Virus record (IMG/VR): IMGVR_UViG_3300042321_002788
Coordinates: 62,001-82,806 of that record
Reading direction: 5' to 3' (one strand)
DNA: 20,806 bases
Source of the DNA: an uncultured virus (IMG/VR IMGVR_UViG_3300042321_002788)
Lineage: Duplodnaviria; Heunggongvirae; Uroviricota; Caudoviricetes
A program made the translations under genes and the position numbers. The notes under the pieces are model-generated. The model was not told the origin of the DNA and made no database searches. It saw nothing but the letters and a program-made list of their open reading frames with translations. Numbering within the stretch: the stretch's first letter is position 1; each line of letters opens with the position of its first letter. This document shows, in pieces, positions 1,048 through 19,514 of the stretch.

Positions 1048-3309
1048 TCAAATAATCGTTGCCAGTGATTCTTTAAAAGGCACTGGATAGCTTGAATTTT
1101 GAAAAACTCGTACTGTGTAAGCCGATTGGACTGACCCCCAATCGGCTATTTGTTGTGCCTCTGTGTAAACGACGCTTCGGGCTGACAATACTGACCATTC
1201 TCGTTTTATTGTGTCCCCATCGTAAATTCTGACTACATAGCTGTCCAACTCTCCTGCTGCGTAAGCAATATCAATATAGTCGATCCAACGACCATCTAAC
1301 CGCGTCCGTCGATACCAAGTAATAATTAAATCGTTGTTATCTTTTTCCCCTCTTACAGCACAAGGGAAAGGCTTTAATCCTTCTAAGGTGATTGTGTGAG
1401 AGACTTCCTCCTCTATATCAGTTTCAAGTAATCCATTAGGGACTACTTTTAATAAATATTCTCGATTAATATCAGAAAGATTTAAGGGGTATCGAACTAA
1501 ATAATTAGTCAGTAACACGAATTTTTCTCCTATTATATGCCTAGAGATAGCCGGTTCAGTTCCTTTGACTCCACGAATTGTATATGAAATATCAAAGGTT
1601 AGGGGATTGTTGGACACAATAGCAGCATTTTTAAAAGCTATAATTTCTCCAGTAGAAAACCAACCTAATTGTTTGCCTGATAGAAATGTTTCAAGAGTAA
1701 CTGGCTCTAATTGCCCTGAATTCATGCTTACTCGTATCCAATTTGAATCGTCAATAAAACTAGGAGAAGCGTTGTTAAAATTTGGGGAGAAGCTTAATAC
1801 AGTACCAGTTACGCTGTTGGCAACATTGCCAATAGCAAAATCATAGCTTAATCCGTTGTCATCAGAATAAAATAATGCTCCTCTGTTAAAACTAGAGTTA
1901 CCTTCAATCGCCACATAAATTCCCATGTCTGCATCTCGGCTACTAACTATTGGGCATTCAATAGGAATAGCGTTAGCGCGTCCGTAGGGACGAGGAATGT
2001 TATTGTCTGGTGGAAATTCGTTATCTATAGGAATATCTGGTAAATATCCTACTCCTTGAAATCGAGTAGCTTCAATTTCAATTAAATAATTTACTCCTCT
2101 TACTTTCTTTGTAATTTGCATCAATTCTTGATGATAATTGTTATTATTATCGGTAAAAATTATATCCCCAACCTTTAAATTTTCCCATGCTGGTAATAAA
2201 AACATTTTTGAAAAAGTTTTTGATTGCGTTTTCCCTAAAAAAAGAATTTTTGAAGCAATATTCATGAAAAGCATATCTATATCTATTAGCTTAGTTTGAA
2301 AACTAAGCTCGTTTGTGTGAGTATCTGATGGGTCTTTAGCTACTGCGGTAATAGTTTCATAATTTTTTAAAACATTTAGCCCAGATACCGTAACAGCACT
2401 AGGGGTTTCTCTAAAATGAGTCAGTTTTTTTTCATTAAGGTCAATAGGATTTTCTCCAAATTTTTTAGACCCAAAAGAGCTTTTAGGGATAAAAATAGGA
2501 TCAGATGATTGTTCTTGTCTTTTAAAAATGATTTTATCTTTTGGCTCCCCTGTCACAATAAAAAAAGCTCTCATAAGTTCTTCTAACTGATCAGCAAAAG
2601 ATGTCCCATCAAACAATAAATCAAATCCTTGAATTTGGTAATCATTAGGAATATCAGTTACGTCAATTTGATCGTCTGTTCTACCAGCTAATTTACAAAT
2701 AGTTTTCAAAATATTTTTTATTTTTGGATTGTTTCCACTTTCTCCAATCACTTCAATATCAATAGTAGGAAATCCAGTGCCGTCATAATTAGCAATCGGA
2801 TAATTATTAAAAACTAAAAAAGACATTCCAGTAAAAGCAGGTACTGGATTAGATTCTTTTGACTGAATTACTGACGATGGTGTAGTTTGATTGCCAGTAT
2901 AAATAGTTGTGTGTTCAATAAATTTTAGGCTTTTTTCGTCATTGGTTTCAGAGTTGTAAACAAGGACGCTATTCATCCAAACTCGCCTAACAGAGCCAAT
3001 TTTTCTAGCAATTGGATAAGCGGCTGTCAAAAAATAAGTGTAAACTTCGGTAGTTTGCCCACCACCACCACCTTTTCCGCCTTGTCTTTCGGACGTGACG
3101 ACTTCCTTAAGAGGAATCCCCCACATCATAGTTAGCCCTTCTTTCCTCACCCTTCCAAAAGGATAGGATAGGCTTCTGCCGTATTCAGCATCGGGAACAC
3201 CAGTATCCTCAATTTTTCCTTTTTGTTGGGTAGGGGGTTTAGGAGCAAATAGAGATAATAATAGGTTAGCTCCGATCCCTATTGCTACGGGAATGAGAAA
3301 ATTAGCCAC
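1048..3309 (-). CDS. Phage tail-tip/host-specificity protein (GTA rcc01698 / Phage-tail_3-like)
   Basis: N-terminal hydrophobic segment then YGxxLxxxFG, GGKGGGG, I-x-RVW-x-N, PAF-x-G, GEIIAF, RGxxGT and C-terminal WxRRTR...YT-x-A-x-Q-x-ADWG, typical of this family; GTG start. Confidence 0.85.
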   Translation of the reverse strand: MANFLIPVAIGIGANLLLSLFAPKPPTQQKGKIEDTGVPDAEYGRSLSYPFGRVRKEGLTMMWGIPLKEVVTSERQGGKGGGGGQTTEVYTYFLTAAYPIARKIGSVRRVWMNSVLVYNSETNDEKSLKFIEHTTIYTGNQTTPSSVIQSKESNPVPAFTGMSFLVFNNYPIANYDGTGFPTIDIEVIGESGNNPKIKNILKTICKLAGRTDDQIDVTDIPNDYQIQGFDLLFDGTSFADQLEELMRAFFIVTGEPKDKIIFKRQEQSSDPIFIPKSSFGSKKFGENPIDLNEKKLTHFRETPSAVTVSGLNVLKNYETITAVAKDPSDTHTNELSFQTKLIDIDMLFMNIASKILFLGKTQSKTFSKMFLLPAWENLKVGDIIFTDNNNNYHQELMQITKKVRGVNYLIEIEATRFQGVGYLPDIPIDNEFPPDNNIPRPYGRANAIPIECPIVSSRDADMGIYVAIEGNSSFNRGALFYSDDNGLSYDFAIGNVANSVTGTVLSFSPNFNNASPSFIDDSNWIRVSMNSGQLEPVTLETFLSGKQLGWFSTGEIIAFKNAAIVSNNPLTFDISYTIRGVKGTEPAISRHIIGEKFVLLTNYLVRYPLNLSDINREYLLKVVPNGLLETDIEEEVSHTITLEGLKPFPCAVRGEKDNNDLIITWYRRTRLDGRWIDYIDIAYAAGELDSYVVRIYDGDTIKREWSVLSARSVVYTEAQQIADWGSVQSAYTVRVFQNSSYPVPFKESLATII

Positions 3310-3344
3310 GGCTTTTTAAAAGATAGTATTTTCTCTATTTTAAG

Positions 3345-3426
3345 TGGATTGGGCTAGATTTGCACTAGCGTGGAATTACTCTACAGATTTACAGTCTGTC
3401 GCCTTCGACTACTCGGCCACCAATCC
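3345..3426 (-). tRNA. trnY: tRNA-Tyr (anticodon GUA), atypical D/T loops, CCA not encoded
   Basis: Minus strand: GGATTGG acceptor pairs CCAATCC, discriminator A; anticodon arm ACAGA-CTGTAAA-TCTGT; long variable region; T arm GCTAG-TGCAAAT-CTAGC. Confidence 0.9.
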
Positions 3427-3438
3427 TTGTTTAAATTT

Positions 3439-3467
3439 ATCTTACTATAATTCTTAATGCTTGTCAA
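3439..3467 (-). promoter_or_regulatory. Sigma70-type promoter for tRNA-Tyr
   Basis: TTGACA-N17-TAAGAT ending 13 nt upstream of the tRNA 5' end. Confidence 0.75.
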
Positions 3468-4011
3468 TCATATTGGTTTTTGATTCTTGATTCTTTTGAG
3501 ATTCTTGCAAATTAAGAAGTTGAAGCATTGCTTCTCCTGCGTCTTTACGCGCCATGTTACAAGTCCAGAGTCTTTGTTCATTGCGCTTGATAATGATAAT
3601 TTCTGTATTAGAAACTAAACAAACTAAATCATTTTTCTGTTTTATTAGTTGATTAATAGCTTCTAATTTTTGCTTTTGTTCTAATTCAGAAACGGGTTGA
3701 GGGTTTTCTCCATACTCTTGCGTGGAGAAAACAACAGCTAACATAACACTTTTTGTTTCTTTAAACTGAAAATGAATAATCTGCCAACTAAATTCACCAT
3801 CAGGCTCTAATTCTCGATTCCAAATATTTAGAAAGGTTTCTAAATAACCTTCTAATCCTTTTTGAGTTTGACGATTTTTATTAATATCACTGAAAAGTCC
3901 TTGATGCTGTTGAGGATAGTTTTCAACAGGTTTTACTGACTCACTATCTTGAATAGAGTAAGAATGACAAGAATTAAACGGAAACATAAAGGGCATATTG
4001 ATTGCTATCAA
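3454..4011 (-). CDS. Hypothetical protein resembling the C-terminal domain of N-6 DNA methylase/RM proteins
   Basis: C-terminal IIIIKRNEQRLWTxxMARKDAGE resembles the IIKPNxxRYWTxSxAxxDAD end of such proteins (from memory); no methylase motifs in the ORF. Confidence 0.45.
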   Translation of the reverse strand: MIAINMPFMFPFNSCHSYSIQDSESVKPVENYPQQHQGLFSDINKNRQTQKGLEGYLETFLNIWNRELEPDGEFSWQIIHFQFKETKSVMLAVVFSTQEYGENPQPVSELEQKQKLEAINQLIKQKNDLVCLVSNTEIIIIKRNEQRLWTCNMARKDAGEAMLQLLNLQESQKNQESKTNMIDKH

Positions 4012-4058
4012 GATATTAGGAAAGTTTAATAATTTGTTACAGATTAACTATATTAGAT

Positions 4059-4373
4059 TTATTCTCTGTAAAAATTAAGATTACACCAAAAGGAATCTTT
4101 CCAAAAATTTATCAATTGTATATTTTTTTCAGCTATTAATTTTCGCCAAAGACGAAAATTCTCAAAAAAATTATACCATCCAAAAGGAACATCTTCTCTA
4201 AGGGTAGTCCAAATAATAGGTAAATAGCTGTCGATAGGTTTATGAAGTTTGTTACAAACATAAACATAAAAACCAAAAGACAAAGTGTAAAACAACCCTT
4301 TGATGATTAACATAAATCCCCACACAGAAATTAAAAACAAATTCAAGATTAAGGTTATCGGTTTTATTTTCAT
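4059..4373 (-). CDS. Hypothetical membrane protein, paralogue of 5657-5950
   Basis: Hydrophobic N-terminus; shares DVPFGWYNFFExFRxW with the 5657-5950 ORF. Confidence 0.7.
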   Translation of the reverse strand: MKIKPITLILNLFLISVWGFMLIIKGLFYTLSFGFYVYVCNKLHKPIDSYLPIIWTTLREDVPFGWYNFFENFRLWRKLIAEKNIQLINFWKDSFWCNLNFYRE

Positions 4374-4429
4374 TTTTGGCCTTCAATAGATTTTAAAGTT
4401 ATTACTATATTACTTTACCACAATTAAAG

Positions 4430-4651
4430 TTATTTGTCTATAACTTTGATAAGAAAATAAATTAAATTTACTTTTTCCGATGTCAGTGTTTTGATTTTCA
4501 TTAAGATTTCTACTAATTTATCCTTAAGTTCTTTTTTAGTGGGTTTTGTGTTAGTTGGTTTGTAAATGAAAGTTTTAGCACTTCCATCTTGTTCTATTTT
4601 AGTTAAAGTGTATTTTTCCATTGTTTTATAATTTAATTTCGTCATCTCCAT
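4430..4651 (-). CDS. Hypothetical basic protein (true start may be ATG 4621)
   Basis: ORF in the packed minus-strand gene run. Confidence 0.5.
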   Translation of the reverse strand: MEMTKLNYKTMEKYTLTKIEQDGSAKTFIYKPTNTKPTKKELKDKLVEILMKIKTLTSEKVNLIYFLIKVIDK

Positions 4652-4955
4652 TCAAAAATCCCGATATATCAAAATGATACTCACTATCAGTATTTTGAGG
4701 AACTACTATTCCTCCAAATTCTAAGAGTTTATTGTCAAGGAATTGCTTGGATTGTTTTAAAGAGATGTAATTCTCTATGGCAAATTCTTTAGCACTAATC
4801 GGTTTTTTGTACCGATATTTGAAGTCTGTATCAAGTTTTTTGTTTCGAGTGTCAGACCACGAGAAATAGTTTATTGTTACTCCTGTCAAGAAACCAAGTA
4901 ATAAAGTTGATACTCCGAAAGCAAAAATTAAAATTTGATAAGTTTCATTGATCAT
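4626..4955 (-). CDS. Hypothetical protein with N-terminal transmembrane helix
   Basis: ILIFAFGVSTLLLGFLTGVTI hydrophobic segment; packed in operon. Confidence 0.65.
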   Translation of the reverse strand: MINETYQILIFAFGVSTLLLGFLTGVTINYFSWSDTRNKKLDTDFKYRYKKPISAKEFAIENYISLKQSKQFLDNKLLEFGGIVVPQNTDSEYHFDISGFLNGDDEIKL

Positions 4956-4978
4956 AGTGCCTTTTTTTAGGTGTAGGT

Positions 4979-5434
4979 TTATCTTAATATATCTAGCCCT
5001 CGATTTCTGATTCTTTGAGCAAAGTCTTTATTAAATACTTTTGATTTTTTAATCACAGTAATCTGATTGCTTGGCCAGTATTCTAGCAGAAAATCAACGA
5101 GTTCTATTGAAGTTGTGTGTATTCTAGCTTTTTTGCTGCATCCTTTTAGTAATTGGTAAAAAAGAAATAGTCCACTAAGCAGGTCTTTTTCAATTACCCA
5201 AAATACCAATCTAATTAATGTATTGCTAAGTCGCCAGTGTTTTAGAAGTTGGCATAGTTTTGTTTCCTCTAATTGCCAGTAACTGAAAAAATCCAAAACA
5301 TTAGAGATTACTGGGTAGTCGCTTCTACTTACGAAGTCAGATACTAGAGCATCGATTGCTTCTAGAGATTGACACATCCCGATAGATGCAATCGATAATC
5401 CCTCTAATTTATATCCTGAAATAATTTGTAGCAT
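4979..5434 (-). CDS. Hypothetical protein (151 aa)
   Basis: ORF in the minus-strand run directly downstream of the CRISPR array. Confidence 0.65.
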   Translation of the reverse strand: MLQIISGYKLEGLSIASIGMCQSLEAIDALVSDFVSRSDYPVISNVLDFFSYWQLEETKLCQLLKHWRLSNTLIRLVFWVIEKDLLSGLFLFYQLLKGCSKKARIHTTSIELVDFLLEYWPSNQITVIKKSKVFNKDFAQRIRNRGLDILR

Positions 5435-5492
5435 GGTTTTAAAGTTTTGTTTTGTTTTGTTTTCTTGCCTTAGTTTGCCTTGCCTTGTAATC

Positions 5493-5586
5493 GTTTCAAT
5501 CTCTAATAAGGCTTAAGCTTAATTGTTTCAGTCGGGCCGGGAGATAGCCTTTTGTTTCGATCAAGTTTCAATCCTTAGTTAGGCTA
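5493..5586 (-). CRISPR. Detached repeat-spacer-partial repeat unit
   Basis: Near-perfect repeat 5493-5529 (GTTTCAATCTCTAATAAGGCTTAAGCTTAATTGTTTC), 35-nt spacer 5530-5564, degenerate repeat starting 5565 (GTTTCAATCCTTAGTTAGGCT). Confidence 0.85.
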
Positions 5587-5656
5587 ACCATGTTCTCAAG
5601 AGAAATCCTAGCAATAAAGTTGGTATTGCAATAAGATAAATTTCGTGATTCATTAT

Positions 5657-5950
5657 TTATTCTTTATAATTATTAATAGTTTCCCAGAAATAAATTACTA
5701 GCAGAGATTTATTTCTTTTAAGTATTAGCTCTTGCCAAAAACGAAAACTTTCAAAAAAATTATACCATCCAAAAGGAACATCAACAAAAATACTATCTAA
5801 AATGATAAGTAGATACCTCTCGACAAAATTGCGTATTGTTAAGATTAAGATTAAAAAACGTGGTTTTATTTCCATTTCTTTTAGTTCCGCTTTGGTTAAT
5901 TTTTTCCTTAAAAATTGACTAATCTTTTTATCTAGTTGTGTTTGATTCAT
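5657..5950 (-). CDS. Hypothetical protein lying between the two array segments; paralogue of 4059-4373
   Basis: 97-aa ORF; 32 identical nt (5751-5782 = 4162-4193). Confidence 0.7.
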   Translation of the reverse strand: MNQTQLDKKISQFLRKKLTKAELKEMEIKPRFLILILTIRNFVERYLLIILDSIFVDVPFGWYNFFESFRFWQELILKRNKSLLVIYFWETINNYKE

Positions 5951-5975
5951 TGTTTTTTTTCGGGTTTAATATTTA

Positions 5976-6607
5976 GTTTAATCTTAATAAAGTTTAAGCT
6001 TAATTGTTTCAAAAGGAGATTAAAAATGTATAACGATTATACCAATGTTTCAATCCCTAATAAGGCTTAAGGTTAATTGCTTCCGATGCTGTGGCCTATG
6101 TAGAGGCTGCCGGTGAGGACTGTTTCAATCCCTAATAAGGCTTAAGGTTAATTGCTTTAATATCTCCCTTTAACTCAGACTGACCGATTTCTGTTTCAAT
6201 CCCTAATAAAGCTTAAAGTTAATTGCTTTTCATCATAGATCAGCAAGGTATTCAGGGAACTATGTTTCAATCCCTAATAAGGCTTAAGCTTAATTGCTTC
6301 ATCCCCCCGTACCCGTGCGGCCTCTACACAATACCAATGTTTCAATCCCTAATAAGGCTTAAGGTTAATTGCTTCTGACACAGAACCGAGTGAGGCTGTG
6401 GACATAGAGGTTTCAATCCCTAATAAGGCTTAAGCTTAATTGCTTCGCTCTCGCTATGCAGTTAGATAGTCAACAGGATAGTTTCAATCCCTAATAAGGC
6501 TTAAGCTTAATTGCTTCCCCCCTTATAGCGAGAGACTAGGGCATAAGCCCCATGGCGATCGAGCGTTAGAGTTTCAATCCCTAATAAGGCTTAAGGTTAA
6601 TTGCTTC
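5976..6607 (-). CRISPR. CRISPR array, 9 repeats of 37 bp and 8 spacers
   Basis: Plus-strand repeat GTTTCAATCCCTAATAAGGCTTAAG(G/C)TTAATTGCTTC at 6047, 6122, 6193, 6264, 6339, 6410, 6481 and 6571, plus a degenerate trailer copy at 5976-6010; spacers 36, 38, 34, 34, 38, 34, 34 and 53 nt; minus orientation inferred from the 3' ATTGAAAC end, leader position and trailer decay. Confidence 0.98.
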
Positions 6608-6880
6608 CCATCTTCCTTTAGCCTTTGATATAAAAGGGTTTCGGGTAAGGATTGCGCCCCATTCGCTAAAATTCAGTTTTCAAGGTTCTGCTCATTCCAA
6701 AAAATCAGGCTAGTAAATCCCAGATTGTAAGCTGGTCGGGGTTTTCGGGGATTGCGCCCCGTGATTTTTTAGAATTTCGCTTAGATGCCTTATTGGGTAA
6801 GGCTTCCAGGTTATTTATGCCGTGGCTATCCTCGCACGGCTGAGGTGGGGCGGAAGAAAAAATAAGGGATTGCGAGTCAT
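6608..6880 (-). promoter_or_regulatory. CRISPR leader, partly overlapping the 3' end of the nuclease gene
   Basis: GGGGCGCAATCC twice (6649-6660, 6749-6760) and CGCAATCCC at ~6866-6874; also GAAACCCTT and AACCTTGAAAAC, which resemble cyanobacterial leader motifs. Confidence 0.65.
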
Positions 6881-8606
6881 TCTCGGACTGAGTGGGAGTG
6901 CGATTCCCTTCCTGCTTTATCTGCTTACTAATCGAGTGTTCGGCATTCTCTATTGGCGCGTCCCCAATAGACTCTTGATTTGCATCAAGATCAGGCGTGA
7001 ATTTCCCTGCTAAACCAGGGTATTTTCCAATCATAGAGACAGGAAACTTGATTAAAGAGCTAATCGCTCTTAAAAACTCATCTCGTAAGCCACGGATCAG
7101 AATATTTGCGGCGGCATTCTGATCGGCGTGGGCTTCATAGCCACAGCTAACACATCTAAACTTTGATTGACTAACGCGGTTAGCTTTATCAATATTACCA
7201 CAATTGAAGCAAGTTTGTGAAGTATGTTTAGGATTAACTCGGATCACTTTTCTGCCACGTTCGTTAGCTTTATTTTCGATAAATGTACGAAGTTGTCCAA
7301 TAGCATTATCAAGTAATGCCTTATTTAATCCGGACTTTCTTTTTTTGCCATTTTGTTTATAGCCATCACCGTCTTCTCTTTCTTTAGGTTTTGCGGCGGC
7401 TGTCATGTTTTTTAGTTTTAAATCTTCTAAAATAACTGATTGATATTCGCTGGTTATTTTATGGGCTAATTGAGCATTTCTCCCTTTTCGCTGACGAGCA
7501 ATTTTCTCATGAACACGGGCAAGTTTAGCGTAGGTTTTACGCTGATTATTAGAGTTATCTTTTTGCCTAGAAGCTTGACGCTGTAGTCGGTTAAGTCGCT
7601 TTTTCTGAATTTTTGCGTAGCGTTTAGCTTCTGATTGTCTCCCTAAGTCATCGGTAAATATTGCCACAGCACCCATATCTAAACCAACACATTTATCAGA
7701 TTCTTTATAGATCATGTCGTCGGTTTCAACGGTTAACTGTAGATAATATCCCGTCGCTTTACGAGTAATTTTAGCCATTCGGGGAGCTTTCCCTTGTAGT
7801 CGGTCAATCCCCCGTACTTTCAGTAATCCTATCTTTGAAGAAACAATAACCCCATTAGATTCAATCTTTATAGTTTCAGGTTGACCGTTAACAAGAGTCT
7901 CTACCTTATCCCGTCTTCTTTTAAACTTAGGAATCCCACGGATACCTTTTTTAGCGGCATCATAAGCAGGTTTAATCACACTTCTAAAAAAGCCTTTTTT
8001 AAACTCTGTTTCAATTTCACCGATAAATTTTGCTGTATCTTCTCGAAAGTAAAAAGCAAGTTTCTCCCTATTGAGATAATTAATAGCATCCTTGTCAATA
8101 TTTTCGGCATTCTTGAAACGACGGATAGGAATAGCATATAAGGGAGTATATTCTTTTCTGTTGCTTGTCTTTTTAAAATAGGCAATTTTACAGCAAGGAT
8201 TGCCAATTAAAAGTTCTTTTTCTTTATCTTTAAGGGCTTTAAACTCTTTTTCGTCATAATCCCCAGAATAACTTAACTCCCATATTTCAGGGCTAAACTC
8301 ATCAAATTTATGTTTTTTGCGATAATATCTTTGCTTTGATTCTTCCTTAAGTGCGATCGAAAGATTCCAGAGTAACTTACACGCCGCTAAAGAACGATCA
8401 ATCTCTGTGATTTGTTCTTTAGTAGGATGTATCTTAAATTCCAAGACTTCCATAGAAGATTTTTCTTCTTTTTTCTTAGGAGTCTTTTTTACGATACTAA
8501 ACCCTAGATGCCCATCTTTAGAACTAGGCGTTTTTTGAATTTGATACTCATCTACTTTACGCTTAACTTTACTTTCTTTGGCTTTCATAGATCGACCTTC
8601 TTTCAT
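6705..8606 (-). CDS. TnpB/Cas12-like RNA-guided RuvC nuclease, CRISPR-associated (type V-U-like; C2c8/V-U2 is a candidate assignment)
   Basis: TnpB-type N-terminus FKIHPTKEQ...CKLLWN; RuvC-I GLD310MG, RuvC-II ILE394DL, Zn ribbon CFNC...CVSC, RuvC-III AD495QNAAANI; stop 97 nt from the first repeat; likely start ATG 8588 (GAAGG RBS). Confidence 0.9.
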   Translation of the reverse strand: MKEGRSMKAKESKVKRKVDEYQIQKTPSSKDGHLGFSIVKKTPKKKEEKSSMEVLEFKIHPTKEQITEIDRSLAACKLLWNLSIALKEESKQRYYRKKHKFDEFSPEIWELSYSGDYDEKEFKALKDKEKELLIGNPCCKIAYFKKTSNRKEYTPLYAIPIRRFKNAENIDKDAINYLNREKLAFYFREDTAKFIGEIETEFKKGFFRSVIKPAYDAAKKGIRGIPKFKRRRDKVETLVNGQPETIKIESNGVIVSSKIGLLKVRGIDRLQGKAPRMAKITRKATGYYLQLTVETDDMIYKESDKCVGLDMGAVAIFTDDLGRQSEAKRYAKIQKKRLNRLQRQASRQKDNSNNQRKTYAKLARVHEKIARQRKGRNAQLAHKITSEYQSVILEDLKLKNMTAAAKPKEREDGDGYKQNGKKRKSGLNKALLDNAIGQLRTFIENKANERGRKVIRVNPKHTSQTCFNCGNIDKANRVSQSKFRCVSCGYEAHADQNAAANILIRGLRDEFLRAISSLIKFPVSMIGKYPGLAGKFTPDLDANQESIGDAPIENAEHSISKQIKQEGNRTPTQSENDSQSLIFSSAPPQPCEDSHGINNLEALPNKASKRNSKKSRGAIPENPDQLTIWDLLA

Positions 8607-8615
8607 TTTTATTTA

Positions 8616-8645
8616 AATCTACCATAACCCTGCTAGAAATGTCAA
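8616..8645 (-). promoter_or_regulatory. Sigma70-type promoter of the nuclease gene
   Basis: TTGACA-N18-TAGATT with extended TGn; near-identical copy at 9075-9104. Confidence 0.7.
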
Positions 8646-8697
8646 GTAAGAAGTCTAAAGATTTTTAATGTCAAATAATGGGATACCAGTTCCCACA

Positions 8698-9030
8698 TCA
8701 GATATAGCCCAACCTATAAAAGTTAAAGGCAGTAGTATCAATATGAAGGGGAAACCCTATAGCTTCCCAATAGTATAATAGTCTTGGCGCGTCAAGAACC
8801 TGAACCGTATAATTTAATCCTGTTTCAGTGAGGATAAATTTTTCAAAAATCTCTGGGGCAACTAAAACAGAACAATAGCTAGTATCGTTAAATTTACCAG
8901 ATTTTTTGGCTAATTCAGAAGTAATTGCGATCAAAATCTCTTTTGTAAGTAATCTTTCTTGCGATATATTGCAACTATCTAAGTTAGTCCAAGCGGTAAA
9001 TTTAACATAATTAGATCGGGAATTAAACAT
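8698..9030 (-). CDS. Hypothetical protein (110 aa) upstream of the nuclease
   Basis: ORF with its own copy of the duplicated promoter. Confidence 0.65.
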   Translation of the reverse strand: MFNSRSNYVKFTAWTNLDSCNISQERLLTKEILIAITSELAKKSGKFNDTSYCSVLVAPEIFEKFILTETGLNYTVQVLDAPRLLYYWEAIGFPLHIDTTAFNFYRLGYI

Positions 9031-9074
9031 AACTTATAGTAAAAAAAGGTGCTAAACTATATTTGACTAACTTA

Positions 9075-9104
9075 AATCTACCATAAGCCTACTAGAAATG
9101 TCAA
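9075..9104 (-). promoter_or_regulatory. Sigma70-type promoter (duplicate of 8616-8645)
   Basis: TTGACA-N18-TAGATT; its -35 overlaps the ATG of the divergent RHH gene. Confidence 0.7.
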
Positions 9105-9238
9105 GTAAAAATTATTATCCTCTTAACGTCCGTACATCAGAATCAGAAGAGAAAAAGCTAAAAAACTACTGTAAAGCCCAAAAGCGGTCAATAACCGAGG
9201 TAGTCCGAGAATTGATTAGAAGTTTACCCGATAACTAA
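9098..9238 (+). CDS. CopG/Arc-like ribbon-helix-helix DNA-binding protein (46 aa, not in the ORF track)
   Basis: MSSKNYYPLNVRTSESEEKKLKNYCKAQKRSITEVVRELIRSLPDN: beta strand LNVR, helix, then SxTEVVRELI; followed by a terminator. Confidence 0.8.
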   Translation: MSSKNYYPLNVRTSESEEKKLKNYCKAQKRSITEVVRELIRSLPDN

Positions 9239-9267
9239 TCAAGGGTGTTGTCGGGATAGCTAACACA

Positions 9268-9297
9268 AAAAGTGCCAGTTTACAGACTGGCACTTTT
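9268..9297. terminator. Intrinsic terminator, probably bidirectional
   Basis: AAAAGTGCCAGT-N6-ACTGGCACTTTT. Confidence 0.75.
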
Positions 9298-9355
9298 AAC
9301 TTTATTCCCCAATTAACAGTTACTTGACGATTTTAGTGAGAAGAAAAAAATAGTT

Positions 9356-9388
9356 AAAGAGAGAGGATTAAAATAATCCTCTCTCTTT
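9356..9388. terminator. Perfect 15-bp inverted repeat / terminator
   Basis: AAAGAGAGAGGATTA-AAA-TAATCCTCTCTCTTT followed by Ts. Confidence 0.7.
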
Positions 9389-9411
9389 TTTAGTTTCCTG
9401 TACTGGCAGTC

Positions 9412-9675
9412 GTTGTTAGATTGTAATTAGATTGTAGATACTCTTATTAACAATGAAACCCTTACAGGGATTAGCTTTTACGCTTTGTTAATACTGTTAA
9501 CACCATTCCCCGATGTTATTTTTTTACGCTCTTACTGCTGAGGCTGTCTTGCCCCTTTACCCTATTTTCTTTTTTCCTCTATACGGCATCAACGGCATCA
9601 ACAAAGTTTAAAACCTATATATATCAAGACCTCCATTGTTAATATCCTTATCTACAATTTATTAACGATAATAAC
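9412..9675. repeat. Long imperfect inverted repeat (~90-bp arms, 80-bp spacer)
   Basis: Arms 9412-9504 and 9585-9675; core ATTGTAGATA-N4-TATTAACAATG versus CATTGTTAATA-N4-TATCTACAAT. Confidence 0.75.
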
Positions 9676-9697
9676 TTAGTTCTTCTGTACTATTATC

Positions 9698-9764
9698 TTT
9701 TTGTAAGTTTTTTGCAAGTTTTTTTTTAAAAATACTTGACAATTCTAGCAATCTACTATAAGAT
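9698..9764 (+). promoter_or_regulatory. Early-operon promoter with upstream putative operator
   Basis: TTGACA(9736)-N17-TAAGAT(9759); 21-mer 9698-9718 is the exact reverse complement of 15706-15726. Confidence 0.75.
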
Positions 9765-9790
9765 TGTATTAATCAAATTTTAGAGGAGCG

Positions 9791-10084
9791 ATGCTTATCA
9801 CCCATATCTCGGTAGATTATAGACAGAAAGTCAATCTTGGTAACTTTGAGTCCGTGGATGTAAGTATAAATATTCATGGGAAACCAGAAGACGACGAAGA
9901 TGCTGATGCTTGCTATGAATTTCTTTTAAATCAAGCACAGCGAGTAGTTATGTCAAAACTTCTGGAAGTAACAGAGGCTCATGATGTCACTTGCCCAAGT
10001 GTGGTCAAGTATTTTGCTGGTAAAGAAACAGACGAGTTTCCTTCCTCTTATAGATTTAGCGACCCTAGCAACCTTCCTTTTTAG
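9791..10084 (+). CDS. Hypothetical phage protein (NLGNFES motif, acidic, ends ...NLPF)
   Basis: RBS GAGGAG; first gene of the plus-strand operon. Confidence 0.75.
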   Translation: MLITHISVDYRQKVNLGNFESVDVSINIHGKPEDDEDADACYEFLLNQAQRVVMSKLLEVTEAHDVTCPSVVKYFAGKETDEFPSSYRFSDPSNLPF

Positions 10085-10095
10085 GAGTAAAAACA

Positions 10096-11103
10096 ATGCC
10101 TATAAAATCTTTGACAACAAGACAAGCCCGGTTCCTTAGACTGGGTATAATTCGCAAAGGGGGAGAAAAAAAAGAAAACCCTAAAAGACCTGGCACTCTA
10201 ATAAGCGGAGATGATTTAGAATATTTTCGCATTGATTCTGATATTCAAGGAATCAACGAAAAATTTACCGCTATTTACGGGAAAGAACCAAAGCAATTAG
10301 ATTGCTTGTTACCTTTTCCTTATACAGACCAAGTATTTCCTTGTTGGATGGAACAGTGGAATGATAAAGATTTAAAAACCTCTGGGTTAATGATTCGGTG
10401 CGACGAGGAAAAGCAACATATCTACCAACAAGCTGGCAAAATGATTGCCACTAATCCTATCCCGTGCAAACGACAACAAAATCCTGACGGAAGTTATTCA
10501 GGGTGTAAATGCAAGCAAGTTGGGCGATTGCAGATTGTTTTACCTAAATTAGGTGAACTAGGATACTTTGAAGTCGAAACCCATTCAAAGTGGGATATTA
10601 TCGGACTAACAGAGCAACTACTAGCTATTGAAACATCGGCTGGTAGTTTGATTGGTATCCCTTTTCTATTAGAACGCGGGTCAAGAGAGCTATCTTATCC
10701 CTTACCAGACGGAAAAAGGGGACGAAAGACTTTTAGTCTTTTATCAATCCGTGTTCACCCTAGCAGAGCGTCTCAAGTTCTAGAAGTCATTGAAACAAAA
10801 GCCTTTCAACAATTTACGGGAAATGTAGAACCTGTCAGAACTCTAACTCCTGCGTCAACGGGAAACGTAAAATTGTTCAACGCTTCGCAATCACTGTCAG
10901 AGGATCGCAAGCAGGCTGGAATTACTTGGGCTGTAAATCAAGGATTACCTCAACCAGAAGCTTTGCAAATCGCCCAACAAGCAACCTCCGAAAAAGAATT
11001 GGCCGACCTCCTAAAAAAAGCTATAGACGCAAGGCTAAAGCCAGTAATAGAAGTTTGCAGTGAAAATATTGATCCTGGTGAACTTCTTAGTGAAGATTTT
11101 TAA
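10096..11103 (+). CDS. Gp3-like (phiC31/phiBT1-type) recombination directionality factor-like protein
   Basis: MPIKxLT...RLGxIRKG...DLEYFR, RCD, C..C.C..VGRL pattern and G-x-FEVETHS, consistent with the Gp3-like family. Confidence 0.7.
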   Translation: MPIKSLTTRQARFLRLGIIRKGGEKKENPKRPGTLISGDDLEYFRIDSDIQGINEKFTAIYGKEPKQLDCLLPFPYTDQVFPCWMEQWNDKDLKTSGLMIRCDEEKQHIYQQAGKMIATNPIPCKRQQNPDGSYSGCKCKQVGRLQIVLPKLGELGYFEVETHSKWDIIGLTEQLLAIETSAGSLIGIPFLLERGSRELSYPLPDGKRGRKTFSLLSIRVHPSRASQVLEVIETKAFQQFTGNVEPVRTLTPASTGNVKLFNASQSLSEDRKQAGITWAVNQGLPQPEALQIAQQATSEKELADLLKKAIDARLKPVIEVCSENIDPGELLSEDF

Positions 11104-11109
11104 TTAGTT

Positions 11110-11135
11110 GCCAGTTGTCAGTTGTCAGTTATCAG
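11110..11135 (+). repeat. Heptamer tandem repeat (CAGTTRT), STRR-like; shorter copy at ~14344-14360
   Basis: gccagttgtcagttgtcagttatcag in an intergenic position. Confidence 0.6.
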
Positions 11136-11156
11136 CAACTTATTAGGAGTAAATCA

Positions 11157-11414
11157 ATGTCTGTGTTCCCAGTTTTCAAAATAATCAAAATGCTCCGATC
11201 TCCAGAAGATGACATGACAGATTTTATCTTTTTAGGACAACAATATCGGTTAATAGCAAGGCCAATAAAATACTGGAAGTATTTTCCGTTTTCTCCGAGG
11301 TTTTGCGGTAAGCGTTTTTTTTATCAGTGTCCGTGGCTAACCATTTTTTCTTTACACAGCGCTGATCCTAGCGTTTTGTTAGACGATGAAAGTAATTCAC
11401 TTAAAAACCATTAG
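11157..11414 (+). CDS. Hypothetical protein
   Basis: AGGAGTAA RBS before ATG 11157 (ORF track start 11115 lies in the heptamer repeat). Confidence 0.6.
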   Translation: MSVFPVFKIIKMLRSPEDDMTDFIFLGQQYRLIARPIKYWKYFPFSPRFCGKRFFYQCPWLTIFSLHSADPSVLLDDESNSLKNH

Positions 11415-11424
11415 GAGTAAACCA

Positions 11425-11562
11425 ATGACACATCAAGAAGAATTAATGAAAGATTGGAGTTTAGAACGACAAGTTAAAGCTTTATCCATCGTGGCTCCTA
11501 ATTTACATCTTTTTATGGAATATAACCCAGAACAGTTAATGGCATTAAGGAGTATTAAATGA
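11425..11562 (+). CDS. Small hypothetical protein (45 aa, not in the ORF track)
   Basis: AGGAGTAA RBS; MTHQEELMKDWSLERQVK...RSIK; ATGA overlap with the next gene. Confidence 0.65.
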   Translation: MTHQEELMKDWSLERQVKALSIVAPNLHLFMEYNPEQLMALRSIK

Positions 11563-11978
11563 ATCTGAATCTCTTAAGTCGTGATTGGTGGGATGAACTG
11601 ACTTCCCAGCAAATACAAGAAATCTTAGTTGAAAGCAGCAAAAACCAATGGAAAGTTTTAAGTACAGGGCAAGTCGAAAATATTTGCTTGCATGGATTGG
11701 TGGCTAACCTAGTTTTTAGTGTAGGCATTAATCAAGTACAGCAATTAAAGGCAGATTTTGAGATTACTTGCGATTCTGGCAAGACTAAAAAAGTAATCAA
11801 GATTAATTTAACATTTGTAGAATTGAAATCTACAAACTTGCTATTTGAAACATTAACAAGTTTATCGGAATCAAATAATCCGTATATATGGATTAAAGGT
11901 AAGGCGATTAATCTTCCAGAAATTACGATTCTTGTTAACGAATGGGGAAAACGCTATGAAGACCTAAAAATGCCTTAA
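11559..11978 (+). CDS. Hypothetical protein (139 aa)
   Basis: AGGAG RBS, translational coupling. Confidence 0.7.
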   Translation: MNLNLLSRDWWDELTSQQIQEILVESSKNQWKVLSTGQVENICLHGLVANLVFSVGINQVQQLKADFEITCDSGKTKKVIKINLTFVELKSTNLLFETLTSLSESNNPYIWIKGKAINLPEITILVNEWGKRYEDLKMP

Positions 11979-15060: not shown

Positions 15061-15666
15061 TTATGCTCCGATTAGTTTCTCCTGTAAATATTGGTAAACC
15101 TCTTTCTGTAAATCTTTTGGGGCAGAACACAGAAAAGCTTTCACATCTTCTAGATCGATCTCTTTAATCATCTTCTGTAACTCATCTAGCTTTGAGTAAA
15201 GAGACTCAACTTCTTTAATTACAAGCTTTGCTTTAACTTGAGGATCAGCTTCCTGAAAAAGTTCGGGAACTAAATTAGGATTTTTAACACAATCCTTTTT
15301 TTGATTGATTGGATCTTTTAGAAAATCCTGAATTGTTGGCCAGTCGCCATTAAGATAATTCACAAAAGAATCTGTATCAAGGCCAAATACAGCAGCTAGT
15401 AATCGCATATTCCCTAGATCAGGGCAGCTAGCGATATTTTTTAGCTCCCAGTTTTGAACCGCTCCCCCAGAAAATTCTGTGCCAGGTAATCCCAATCGCC
15501 GGCCTTCTTTTAGTATCCACTCAGTAAATTCGGCTTGGGTCATGCCCAGCCCCATCCTTTTTGCCTTAATCGTATCGGACATTTTGCTTATCCCTTTTTC
15601 TGTCAAGGCCGAGGACTTTACTCGTTTGCGGGGTGTCCCGTCGCTGTTAAATCGTGGTGTAGCCAT
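15061..15666 (-). CDS. XRE-family HTH transcriptional regulator (putative phage repressor)
   Basis: IKAKRMGLGMTQAEF...SGGAVQNWE...PDLGNMRLLAAVFG; divergent from the replication genes. Confidence 0.85.
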   Translation of the reverse strand: MATPRFNSDGTPRKRVKSSALTEKGISKMSDTIKAKRMGLGMTQAEFTEWILKEGRRLGLPGTEFSGGAVQNWELKNIASCPDLGNMRLLAAVFGLDTDSFVNYLNGDWPTIQDFLKDPINQKKDCVKNPNLVPELFQEADPQVKAKLVIKEVESLYSKLDELQKMIKEIDLEDVKAFLCSAPKDLQKEVYQYLQEKLIGA

Positions 15667-15705
15667 AAAAGTGTATTTTGATAAGATACCCTTATCTTAC
15701 ACTAC

Positions 15706-19310: not shown

Positions 19311-19514
19311 ATGATCGGACAATATATTCCCTCCCGATACCCTGAAAAAGTTTATCGTGTTAATTCCTATGGTCAAATTTTCCCCCGGTGCAAACCACTG
19401 GGGATTATTAAGACTGCCATAGGAATCTACTATCACTTTGAATCAATTGATCGCCTCACAAAAGGAGAACATTTTTACTGTTTTCGCAAAGAAGATTTTA
19501 CAGAAATTTCTTGA
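19311..19514 (+). CDS. Hypothetical protein (67 aa)
   Basis: ATG 19311 just after the RNA 3' end; the ORF-track TTG start at 19281 falls inside the RNA. Confidence 0.55.
   Translation: MIGQYIPSRYPEKVYRVNSYGQIFPRCKPLGIIKTAIGIYYHFESIDRLTKGEHFYCFRKEDFTEIS

Follow-up and report, generated by a model that had tools for sequence, protein, structure and literature searches.

Is the TnpB-like gene that lies beside a CRISPR array in a tailed Microcystis phage a nuclease guided by this array, and against which DNA would it be directed? We addressed this question in a window of 20,806 nucleotides, positions 62,001 to 82,806 of an 82.8-kb IMG/VR record; coordinates below are those of the window. An earlier note, made from the letters alone, had guessed at a C2c8 (type V-U2) effector used by a temperate cyanophage against competing mobile elements.

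The effector gene and its phage context

The ORF, at 6705..8606 on the minus strand, reads as 633 aa and is present as a single copy in the 82.8-kb record. With Pfam, it matches OrfB_IS605 at residues 300-402, a Cas12f1-like TNB zinc ribbon at 437-502 and, weakly, HTH_OrfB_IS605 at 57-90. In an alignment of 63 sequences, D310, E394 and the cysteines C466/C469/C485/C488 are invariant, while D495 is kept in at least 90% of the sequences and is invariant in alignments of 18 and 31 sequences. The TnpB architecture, catalytic residues D310/E394/D495 and Zn ribbon described in the earlier note are therefore in agreement with domain searches and alignments. As in type V effectors, the RuvC D-E-D triad is split by the zinc-ribbon/TNB insert.

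The NCBIfam C2c8 model (NF038192, V_cas_c2c8) gives 469.4 bits for a cut-off of 350 and is covered from position 2 to 457 of 457; the TnpB subfamily model scores 182. IS200_TnpB (141.7 for a cut-off of 425) and IS607_TnpB (74.3 for 350) were rejected, as was Cas12f (NF049972 Cas12f2, 83.6 bits for 450), to which the structural likeness is that of the TnpB core only. In the tree, the closest relatives are long C2c8-like proteins with adjacent arrays, not the IS605/IS607 TnpBs without arrays that the earlier note had named as speaking against its reading. Judged on profile scores, the window protein is a member of the known family C2c8 (type V-U2), as had been guessed. The AF2 model has a confident core, with pLDDT above 90 from about residue 50 to about residue 520; the nearest folds are Cas12p, TnpB, Cas12f and TranC.

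Since codon 1 is not a start codon in seven of the nine relatives compared, translation probably starts at M7 (8588), which would give 627 aa. Host copies of the gene start at M52 (8453), where the part common to phage and host begins. The N-terminal extension of about 50 aa noted earlier must be qualified accordingly, its first codons probably not being translated. A promoter-like element of 40 nt (8613..8652, minus strand; hexamers judged by eye) lies just upstream of the ORF and recurs with 93% identity (repeat family D3) at 9072-9111, ahead of the adjacent phage ORF of 110 aa.

Cas and TnpA profiles were searched with Pfam in the 29 window ORFs and, for the remainder of the record, in 75 of its 77 ORFs that reach 70 aa; the two record ORFs outside this search are 18989-21241 and one of 3409 aa. 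Among the ORFs searched, no match was found to cas1, cas2, cas4 or cas6, to a Y1 TnpA or serine recombinase, to an integrase or to Tn7-like genes, in line with the absence of tnpA and cas1, cas2, cas4 and cas6 from the window noted previously. The neighbouring tail and primase genes are also confirmed, as a 753-aa ORF matching a phrog tail protein and a 965-aa primase/helicase ORF with DUF3987. The putative repressor (ORF 15061-15666) had zero matches, and a temperate lifestyle is not upheld, no integrase having been found in the window or in the searched remainder of the record.

Array, spacer turnover and targets

The leader (6608..6704, minus strand) spans the 97 nt from the stop codon to the first repeat and hardly varies among 17 relatives; it shares an 18-nt block (6671-6688) with a distant C2c8 locus (L034). 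It is followed by the CRISPR array (6047..6607, minus strand), with eight well-kept 37-bp repeats and seven spacers of 38, 34, 34, 38, 34, 34 and 53 nt, the newest adjoining the leader. A last spacer of 36 nt and a degenerate terminal repeat, the ninth, at about 5974-6010, occupy the gene-distal end (5974..6046, minus strand). Beyond a 97-aa phage ORF (5657..5950, minus strand), array remnants remain at 5493..5585 on the same strand, with an orphan full repeat at 5493-5529 and a partial one at 5565-5585. This ORF follows the array in nearly all phage relatives but is missing from host c2c8 loci, and thus lies outside the module. The array is co-oriented with the gene, because the degenerate repeat is distal, spacers turn over on the gene-proximal side in relatives and the PAM is 5' in the direction of the gene. 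The spacing and co-orientation seen in the earlier note hold, with the stop at 6705 and the first repeat from 6607.

Then, we investigated whether orthologues are consistently adjacent to arrays, a check proposed in the earlier note. Gene, leader and array are kept together in all 17 related IMG/VR phage contigs (4-25 repeats), with the same repeat family beginning about 100 nt past the gene in each of them. From 401 cyanobacterial genomes, the six loci above the C2c8 cut-off all have an array within 1.5 kb, downstream and co-oriented in five cases. In four out of four distant metagenome loci whose proteins bear the long C-terminal tail, the array lies 0-85 nt from the stop codon, one of them overlapping it. 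On these sequences, linkage of gene, leader and array is strict across phage and cyanobacterial relatives. Spacer turnover is polarised to the gene-proximal end, as seen in three phage contigs (L004, L007 and L017) that have distal spacers in common and a different proximal end.

A search with the spacers, also proposed in the earlier note, gave matches for 21 of the 84 unique phage-borne spacers, and for 5 of the 8 window spacers, in an integrase/primase-helicase element or in related host loci. Window spacers 1, 2, 3 and 5 match one contig (G001:C139) with 5/53, 0/34, 4/34 and 3/34 mismatches, and spacer 6 matches G416 with 1/34; many matches in the whole set are imperfect (0-7 mismatches). 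Genes for an integrase, for a Mu-HTH protein and for a DUF3987 primase/helicase lie on the element, whose primase occurs in three of 17 Microcystis genomes. It is in the integrase, regulator and primase genes that the targets concentrate. Phage G405 has a spacer that matches phage G407, with a GTC flank. G407 itself carries a second such gene-array pair, and 4 of its 14 spacers match the target element. Protospacers as identified by sequence matching are thus mostly located in one Microcystis integrase / Mu-like HTH / DUF3987 primase-helicase element, plus one rival phage, which fits the use against competing mobile elements suggested earlier. A 5' GTN flank is found at 14 of the 21 matched protospacers, for a chance expectation of 1 in 16, and is absent from the other seven; GTN on the 5' side is the likely PAM. 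By a hand tally, seven protospacers are in mRNA sense and eight in antisense, which fits the targeting of DNA and not of transcripts.

Close copies of c2c8 (87-92% nt identity) are found in Microcystis genomes, and homology between host and phage at this level runs from M52 through the gene and the leader into the array. In class, 3' end and hairpin, the phage repeats agree with those of host Microcystis arrays. Nineteen spacers of the host arrays located beside host c2c8 match this phage group, with GTY flanks at 9 of 12 first matches; some phages display variant flanks at these sites. The locus is probably a working, phage-borne type V-U2 CRISPR system, with c2c8, leader and array exchanged as one module with Microcystis chromosomes. 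Cas1 and Csc2 were not found in two draft host genomes with c2c8 arrays.

The disordered C-terminal tail and the RNA domain in its coding region

The protein ends with a tail of about 105-125 aa that is predicted to be disordered, consistent with the long C-tail described before. It terminates in QLTIWD (codons 622-632; 6711..6743, minus strand), a short linear motif resembling those that bind the beta clamp. Known clamp-binding peptides are terminal and QL[SD]LF-like, and occupy a pocket between clamp domains II and III; the C2c8 motif mostly has W where this consensus has F. Of the 266 homologues collected, 55 have a QL[TSG][LI][WF]D, whose median distance from the C-terminus is 5 residues; inside protein bodies the motif occurs at a rate of 0.0031 per 40 aa. 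The motif is encoded by different codons in the window and in the relative L024. The two highest-scoring short C2c8s (L033 and L034) have neither the disordered tail nor the QL..[WF]D motif.

In a model of the tail-clamp complex, the motif is docked into the beta-clamp pocket with a score of 0.71, the best of three controls reaching 0.00. For comparison, 116 of 157 solved complexes attained this mark, as did 2 of 215 mismatched pairs, figures that apply only roughly since our own alignments were used. At least 85% of contacts agree between runs, with a partner pLDDT of at least 46, and the modelled contacts join residues 622 and 624-632 to clamp residues 179-184, 254-259, 334, 358-360 and 374-381. 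As clamp-peptide complexes have already been solved, this result may reflect mere likeness to them. The C-terminal motif may serve to anchor the effector on the beta sliding clamp of the host. In the literature searched, a clamp motif is nowhere linked to TnpB or Cas12. IS200/IS605 TnpA and Tn7 TnsE are described as binding the clamp and seeking replicating DNA (PMC3971601, PMC5027513), but these are transposases or target selectors, whereas the window C2c8 is a predicted nuclease.

The same coding region contains a hairpin-rich RNA domain (6924..7090, minus strand; codons about 506-561), a candidate tracr/omega-like scaffold. Its fold has a z score of -2.57, and across 11 distinct sequences 98.4% of cells are paired, with three compensatory pairs against none in slid controls. 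Two hairpins contain these pairs, one of which entails two amino-acid changes; the closing helix is broken in 3 of the 11 sequences. Synonymous divergence is 0.18 for the core and drops in the tail, to 0.105 and then to 0.038. In two studies, RNA contigs with very high depth span 6867-7084, a weak hint, since these are assemblies only, which include host copies and do not give strand, ends or level. In two tail-bearing relatives, strong cognate anti-repeats lie inside the tail-coding region (L097, -41.3 kcal/mol; L100, -33.5 kcal/mol), non-cognate pairs giving -14 to -32 kcal/mol, as would be expected of an omega RNA divided into a tracr and a crRNA part. In three regions of the window, by contrast, none of the anti-repeats is significant, the best duplex being matched by shuffles in 20/150, 25/150 and 5/150 cases.

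Mode of action, alternatives and known systems

The array would be transcribed with the c2c8 gene or just behind it, and a crRNA made of the 3' part of the repeat and a spacer would be loaded onto C2c8. A structured RNA would probably join it, made from the tail-coding 3' part of the ORF in the way that omega RNA overlaps the 3' end of tnpB. The complex would find GTN-flanked double-stranded DNA, which RuvC would cut; during infection, a competitor element, which may be of a satellite kind, and rival phages would thereby be removed or blocked. As no adaptation genes were found among the phage ORFs searched, spacers would be added in trans by host Cas1-Cas2(-Cas4). The clamp-like motif of the disordered tail may park the effector on replicating DNA. 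In a broader and still tentative joint reading, for which we would claim rather less than even confidence, tail-bearing V-U2 proteins would be replisome-tethered, dual-coded RNA-guided nucleases, serving Microcystis phages as an anti-satellite weapon and the host as an anti-phage module. The last ~125 codons would then encode a disordered linker and a clamp peptide for the scanning of replicated DNA (phages, induced islands, plasmids) and would provide, as RNA, the tracr/omega-like scaffold for crRNAs of the array abutting the stop; Microcystis phages would sometimes carry two modules with different PAMs. The literature searched holds no report of cleavage, RNA binding or interference by any V-U2 protein.

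Since the phage repeats are of the host class, crRNAs from the phage could be processed and used by host type I-D or type III effectors, in which case GTN might stem from host adaptation instead of being C2c8's own PAM. The orphan array of cyanophage N-1 has reportedly been proposed to be used by host effectors, and the type I-D PAM is also GTN, a point discussed for cyanobacterial arrays (bioRxiv 10.1101/2021.02.06.429022). That the array works through such host complexes, with C2c8 as a passenger TnpB-like gene located beside arrays for some other reason, is nonetheless unlikely: despite a phage repeat that is a close variant of the host ones, a shared GTN flank and a window without a clear anti-repeat, gene, leader and array travel together between host and phage and are linked in all loci examined. 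In tail-bearing relatives whose quite different repeats fall outside the host class, arrays still abut the stop and strong anti-repeats lie in the ORFs; the second gene-array pair of G407 is aimed at the same element, and, as far as two drafts can show, hosts with c2c8 yielded no Csc2.

C2c8 might also bind without cutting, like Cas12m, Cas12c and TldR, and silence the integrase and primase genes of the rival element or block its replication. A regulatory role was raised for V-U2 in the report on phage CL131 (PMC6293099), targets do cluster in integrase, regulator and primase genes, and clamp tethering could serve a replication block. Binding-only lineages are described as usually losing the RuvC triad and zinc ribbon (PMC10691335), whereas both are invariant across this family, and protospacers lie on both strands and throughout genes, not at promoters; we consider this possibility quite improbable. 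An ordinary mobile TnpB with its omega RNA, the adjacent array being a coincidence of insertion-site preference, is hardly credible, although the Pfam and PHROG labels are those of an IS605 OrfB transposase and, as in TnpB, a structured RNA extends over the end of the ORF on its 3' side. The record has a single copy and no TnpA among the ORFs searched, the C2c8 score is far above those of the TnpB models, relatives keep the gene at the same position between the same phage genes, and the array is always adjacent, with spacers that turn over and have real targets.

We retain, as the probable reading, C2c8 as a nuclease guided by its own array, and compared the locus with known systems. Like cyanobacterial V-U2 loci, it has a TnpB-sized effector whose RuvC is intact and, next to it, an array with repeats of ~37 bp, while adaptation genes are lacking; it differs in being carried by a phage, in a phage-specific N-extension of about 45 aa and in belonging to a sub-clade with a long disordered tail and C-terminal QL..[WF]D. 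It is not the first phage-borne V-U2, because Aphanizomenon phage vB_AphaS-CL131, a siphovirus described in 2018, carries a TnpB-like V-U2 gene beside a 10-spacer array, with no other cas gene (PMC6293099). One CL131 spacer partly matches a cyanobacterial primase pseudogene, echoing the primase-bearing element targeted here; its authors could neither orient the array nor identify any further target (PMC6293099). The two proteins share only 36.7% identity, the host here is Microcystis, and the present locus adds population evidence of spacer turnover, a PAM and a defined target element.

From the 2013 work of Seed et al., Vibrio phage ICP1 is said to carry a type I-F CRISPR-Cas aimed at the PLE island, likewise a phage-encoded CRISPR with spacers against a host-resident integrative element. 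ICP1 has a complete class 1 system that includes adaptation genes, whereas we found a single small class 2 effector without them and a target that may or may not be a parasite of phages. In Cas12k (V-K, formerly V-U5, CAST), RuvC is inactive and the gene is linked to tnsB, tnsC and tniQ. This identity was rejected for the window protein, whose RuvC is intact and whose surroundings give no tnsB/tnsC/tniQ-type gene among the Pfam matches; no Cas12k chain is among the best 50 Foldseek matches. Cas12k resembles the window locus in being cyanobacterial, of about 640 aa, with 37-bp repeats of similar ends and a GTN PAM, and type I-D machinery is described as possibly adding its spacers in trans (bioRxiv 10.1101/2021.02.06.429022). 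TranC, presented as a transposon-CRISPR intermediate (Jin et al. 2025, cited in review PMC13565253; PDB 9jfo/9jfq), takes its guides from a transposon-derived reRNA as well as from CRISPR RNA, with which the ORF-embedded RNA here and the anti-repeats inside the ORFs of L097 and L100 would be compatible. It shares with TnpB omega systems and the window locus a TnpB/Cas12f/TranC-like fold and a structured RNA over the 3' end of the ORF, but sequence similarity to LaTranC is weak (E 0.0014) and the window locus has no transposon ends or TnpA. The best structural match is Cas12p (PDB 9jfs; E 5.6e-21, 17% identity), a small phage-encoded Cas12 described as working with host thioredoxin (bioRxiv 10.1101/2025.01.20.633832). 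It provides a precedent for reliance on a host protein, which here would be the beta clamp, through a terminal peptide motif, and not TrxA.

A 2024 review lists V-U2 as the only one of the five original 'V-U' groups without a Cas12 letter, a size or a PAM (PMC11641405). New here are the linkage in 17 contigs, the turnover, the targets with a GTN flank, counter-targeting by the host, the clamp-like motif and the RNA domain. This lineage thereby offers material for experiments: an effector of about 580-630 aa, the orientation of its array, a likely GTN PAM, natural targets, a candidate scaffold RNA and a candidate host partner. It would be a second natural case, after ICP1/PLE, of a phage CRISPR aimed at a host-resident element. 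Clamp tethering, if true, would give RNA-guided nucleases a novel means of locating invaders as these replicate, and might be exploited in the engineering of small editors. In this bloom-forming cyanobacterium, host and phage appear to turn the same module on each other.

The effector and its family

The ORF at 6705-8606 (minus strand) encodes a product of 633 aa, in which Pfam recognised OrfB_IS605 (RuvC I-II), a Cas12f1-like TNB zinc ribbon and, weakly, an N-terminal HTH_OrfB_IS605. Across an alignment of 63 sequences, there is no variation at D310, E394 or the four cysteines of the zinc ribbon; D495 is conserved in at least 90% of the sequences, and without exception in the alignments of 18 and 31 sequences. 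These results bear out the earlier note, which had described a TnpB-like protein of this length with a RuvC triad and a zinc ribbon. Its suggestion of C2c8 (V-U2) also stands: the NCBIfam C2c8 (type V) model scored 469.4 bits over its full length (cut-off 350). The generic TnpB model reached 182 on the same ORF, and the IS200, IS607 and Cas12f2 models all scored far under their respective cut-offs.

The AF2 model of the protein has a mean pLDDT of 78.4, with values above 90 for the core (residues ~50-520) and below 50 for residues 528-633, which indicates a disordered tail. The best Foldseek matches were Cas12p-TrxA, ISFba1 TnpB, ISDra2 TnpB, several Cas12f and LaTranC; no Cas12k chain was found among the matches listed, to rank 50. 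In a tree of 149 representatives, built with FastTree only and rooted at the midpoint, the window protein falls in a clade of 79 rows of longer proteins (support 99), and the proteins of ~400 aa sit apart from it, in the other half of the tree. From the model scores, the fold and the tree position, the window protein is therefore a member of V-U2. Its basic N-terminal extension, found in phage copies only, appears to be coding (pN/pS 0.37), and translation probably starts at M7, as seven of nine relatives lack a start codon at codon 1.

Two observations concern other copies of the gene. In a Microcystis isolate (L023, G002:C171), the host c2c8 match spans 2.6 kb (1425-4056) with an open frame of 355 aa only; a separate TnpB-like match lies within it and the adjoining array has 55 repeats, which suggests that an IS was inserted into the effector gene. 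Moreover, two contigs of the window's phage group (L019 and L022), one of which matches the window at 100% identity across the gene, are filed in a Crocinitomicaceae (Bacteroidota) MAG. Given the spacer links to Microcystis, this placement is probably a binning error.

Linkage of gene, leader and array

The array comprises eight 37-bp repeats and seven spacers (6047-6607) and begins 97 nt downstream of c2c8, as had been noticed from the sequence. A degenerate ninth repeat follows it; past a 97-aa ORF come an orphan repeat and a partial one. The array adjacency of orthologues, a check proposed by the earlier note, was found throughout. In 17 out of 17 related IMG/VR loci (proteins 90-97% identical), the same repeat family begins ~100 nt past the gene, with 4-25 repeats. 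Among the 401 cyanobacterial genomes sampled, six matches exceeded the C2c8 cut-off, all six with an array within 1.5 kb, which was downstream and co-oriented in five. In the four distant tail-bearing metagenome loci, the array starts 80 nt (L097), 83 nt (L098) or 5 nt (L100) past the stop codon, or 30 nt before the ORF end (L099). These four were the tail-bearing C2c8s among 80 loci, mostly ordinary TnpBs, returned by a metagenome scan with a broad pattern; a scan of genome contigs with one peptide pattern returned 7 loci.

The leader is almost invariant among relatives, and near-identical phages differ in their spacer sets. In three of them (L004, L007 and L017), the distal spacers are common and the gene-proximal ones differ, a turnover that is the signature of polarised acquisition at the gene-side leader. 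The newest spacer of the window (6518-6570) is 53 nt long, vs. 34-38 nt for the others; its protospacer overlaps the one matched by a 34-nt spacer of phage L017, and one integrase-gene site was thus sampled twice. Three Microcystis genomes carry c2c8 copies 90-93% identical to that of the phage, beside arrays of 15-56 repeats. The host-phage nucleotide homology (87-92%) runs from codon 52 exactly, via the gene and the leader, into the array; by these limits, c2c8, leader and array are a module that has been exchanged as a unit. Separately, an 18-nt block past the stop codon of the window gene (6671-6688, minus strand) recurs without change just past that of L034, a distant C2c8 locus with a short tail and an array ~440 nt beyond the block. 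It may be a processing site, the start of a tracr-like RNA or a leader signal.

The window makes up the final 20.8 kb of an IMG/VR record of 82.8 kb, whose estimated completeness is 91%. Phage genes in the window encode a tail protein, a primase/helicase with DUF3987, one Gp3-like and one ParB-like protein, and the remainder of the record encodes a large terminase, NblA, the RNR small subunit, a methylase and baseplate proteins. The terminase (G000:C1:33410-36286) has an intein-like LAGLIDADG/homing-endonuclease insert; NblA (15410-15670) acts in phycobilisome degradation. Cas1/2/4/6, Y1 transposase, integrase and DnaN were not found in a search of the 29 window ORFs and of 75 of the 77 other ORFs of the record. 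The absence of tnpA, cas1, cas2, cas4 and cas6 from the window, as first reported, was thus confirmed. Gene calls also confirmed the tail and primase neighbours of the earlier note; its repressor and its description of the phage as temperate are unsupported, since this gene search gave no integrase. The neighbouring phage ORFs of 110 aa and 97 aa have no family match and are missing from host c2c8 loci, and were therefore left out of the system. Immediately upstream of c2c8 (8613-8652) is a 40-nt sequence that recurs as a direct repeat (93% identical) upstream of the 110-aa ORF (9072-9111); on the minus strand it resembles a -35/-10 promoter by eye, and this promoter-like element upstream of both genes suggests their shared control. 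At 3337-4011 and near 19365, approximately 1 kb in all, the window is 90% identical to Microcystis myoviruses of the Ma-LMM01/MaMV type. These phages have a single 41-nt copy resembling the window repeat (MaMV-CH01 152663-152703), a few hundred bases off the stretch common to window and myoviruses.

Spacer targets and flanking motifs

Against INPHARED phages and PLSDB plasmids, the window spacers produced repeat-level matches only; five related phage genomes gave no match, and two exact IMG/VR scans, for parts of spacers 1 and 7, turned up just another array and no protospacer. In Microcystis genomes, spacers 1, 2, 3, 5 and 6 did match. Spacer 2 matches perfectly an 8.9-kb Microcystis contig (G001:C139), to which spacers 1, 3 and 5 also point (5/53, 4/34 and 3/34 mismatches, respectively), and spacer 6 matches a host chromosome (G416) with 1 mismatch. 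The contig encodes a tyrosine integrase, a Mu-type HTH protein and a 986-aa DUF3987 primase/helicase that shares 33-35% identity with the phage's own. From this gene set, we infer that the element may be a phage satellite; its primase was found in 3 of 17 Microcystis species genomes, a patchy distribution typical of a mobile element.

Pooling the phage arrays, 21 of 84 unique spacers match the contig, homologues of its integrase or the site in G416. Read in the direction of the gene, a 5' GTN flank is present at 14 of these 21 protospacers, vs. 1 in 16 expected by chance. By hand tally, 7 protospacers are mRNA-sense and 8 antisense, and this balance fits the targeting of DNA rather than of transcripts. 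Related phages are also concerned: a spacer of phage G405 matches phage G407 (GTC flank, 1 mismatch) within the stretch of a second C2c8-like gene that encodes the tail. This second gene is found just past the first array in G407 (G407:C1:41240-42700, i.e. L010 ~10160-11620) and in G406 (L009), and its product ends in a C-terminal motif of the same kind as that of the window C2c8. At its stop codon are 15 copies of a different 36-bp repeat, the first copy overlapping; 4 of the 14 spacers of this second array match the integrase/primase contig, with NTT-like flanks (CTT, ATT, ATT and GTA).

Conversely, 19 spacers of the host arrays beside host c2c8 match the window's phage group, and 9 of 12 first hits have a GTY flank. 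Some phages display variant flanks where the site is otherwise conserved, which looks like PAM escape. Pressure from a type I-D system could also produce such variants; Csc2 is present in one of four Microcystis genomes and was not found in two incomplete drafts carrying c2c8. A Cas1 search of the same two drafts was also negative.

The tail and its coding region

Summed over nine relatives, synonymous divergence drops from 0.18 in the core to 0.105 (codons 511-575) and then 0.038 (codons 576-633); pN/pS in this last segment climbs to 0.89. This fall and rise point to constraint on the nucleotides of the tail-coding codons. The stretch 7090-6924 has a predicted multi-hairpin fold (z -2.57 for the enclosing 231 nt), in which 98.4% of cells pair across 11 distinct sequences. 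Changes on both sides of a pair were seen three times (two in helix 5, one in helix 8) and never in the six slid controls. There is no support for the closing helix, which is disrupted in 3 of the 11 sequences. One compensatory pair entails P530L and G534R, in a seemingly conserved peptide. As the window sequence served to derive the structure and the 11 sequences are closely related, this covariation is suggestive and not proof. No Rfam model scored near its gathering threshold in 5400-9800.

RNA contigs covering relatives of the gene were found in four freshwater metatranscriptome studies. In two of them, the contigs over 6867-7084 reach a word depth of ~2,700-10,000 and 51,000-87,000, vs. 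tens in the gene body, and one contig has an adapter-like loose end at 6924. Since strand, ends and level cannot be read from such contigs, and host copies are among them, they are a weak hint; their gaps (e.g. 5559-5994) were left uninterpreted. A strong cognate anti-repeat was found within the tail-coding region of L097 (-41.3 kcal/mol) and L100 (-33.5 kcal/mol), whose repeats differ from the host class, vs. -14 to -32 kcal/mol for non-cognate pairs. Other loci with host-class repeats gave no cognate signal, and none was significant in the window, where shuffles did as well in 20/150 cases for the RNA domain, 25/150 for the rest of the tail and 5/150 for the leader.

The tail nevertheless seems to be translated to its end, judging from its last residues: 31 tail-bearing sequences all have Q625 and L626, and the motif codons differ between the window and locus L024. 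The motif QL[TSG][LI][WF]D occurs in 55 of 266 collected homologues, at a median of 5 residues from the C-terminus (many of these carriers being closely related; 38 of 149 tree rows), vs. 0.0031 occurrences per 40 aa over the rest of these proteins. Among the 63 metagenome loci with enough flank, a downstream array is present in 4/4 with the motif and 1/59 without; this association is at the level of the clade. The motif resembles the consensus of the bacterial beta-clamp-binding pentapeptide. A complex model of Microcystis DnaN with C2c8 residues 590-633 scored 0.71, the best of three controls 0.00. Of the solved complexes, 116 of 157 attain this mark, as do 2 of 215 mismatched pairs; these counts hold only approximately, since the model was run with our own alignments. 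Over three runs, at least 85% of the contacts recur (partner pLDDT at least 46); they join residues 622 and 624-632 to clamp residues 179-184, 254-259, 334, 358-360 and 374-381. Since clamp-peptide complexes have already been solved, the modelled pass expresses likeness to these complexes and not binding. No clamp was found in the phage ORFs searched (29 in the window and 75 of 77 others). In the available parts of the literature searched, no link between a clamp motif and Cas12 was found, and sliding clamp with TnpB led to work on IS200/IS605 TnpA.

A putative V-U2 locus with 10 spacers was described in 2018 in phage vB_AphaS-CL131, one spacer partly matching a cyanobacterial primase pseudogene; in the available part of that article, its authors report that no tracrRNA was found and that the array could not be oriented (PMC6293099). 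Its effector shares 36.7% identity with the window C2c8. As far as their available text goes, a 2024 review that includes V-U2 in its list still gives neither size nor PAM for it (PMC11641405), and a 2023 survey of TnpB and Cas12 leaves V-U2 untreated in the main text (PMC10691335).

The observation of the earlier note is confirmed and its interpretation largely supported. The analysis itself establishes the family, the gene-array linkage, the spacer turnover, the flank and the targets. Beyond these, we infer that the phage would express C2c8, with the array on the same or an overlapping transcript, and that crRNAs, probably with RNA from the 3' part of the ORF, would guide the nuclease to cleave GTN-flanked DNA of the rival integrase/primase element and of rival phages. 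Host machinery would add spacers in trans, and the putative clamp-binding tail may put the enzyme on replicating DNA. V-U2 is a known but uncharacterised kind, with a phage-borne case already published, and the window is a further member. Its value lies in the targets, the likely PAM and two testable leads, namely a putative scaffold RNA embedded in the ORF and a candidate clamp-binding tail.
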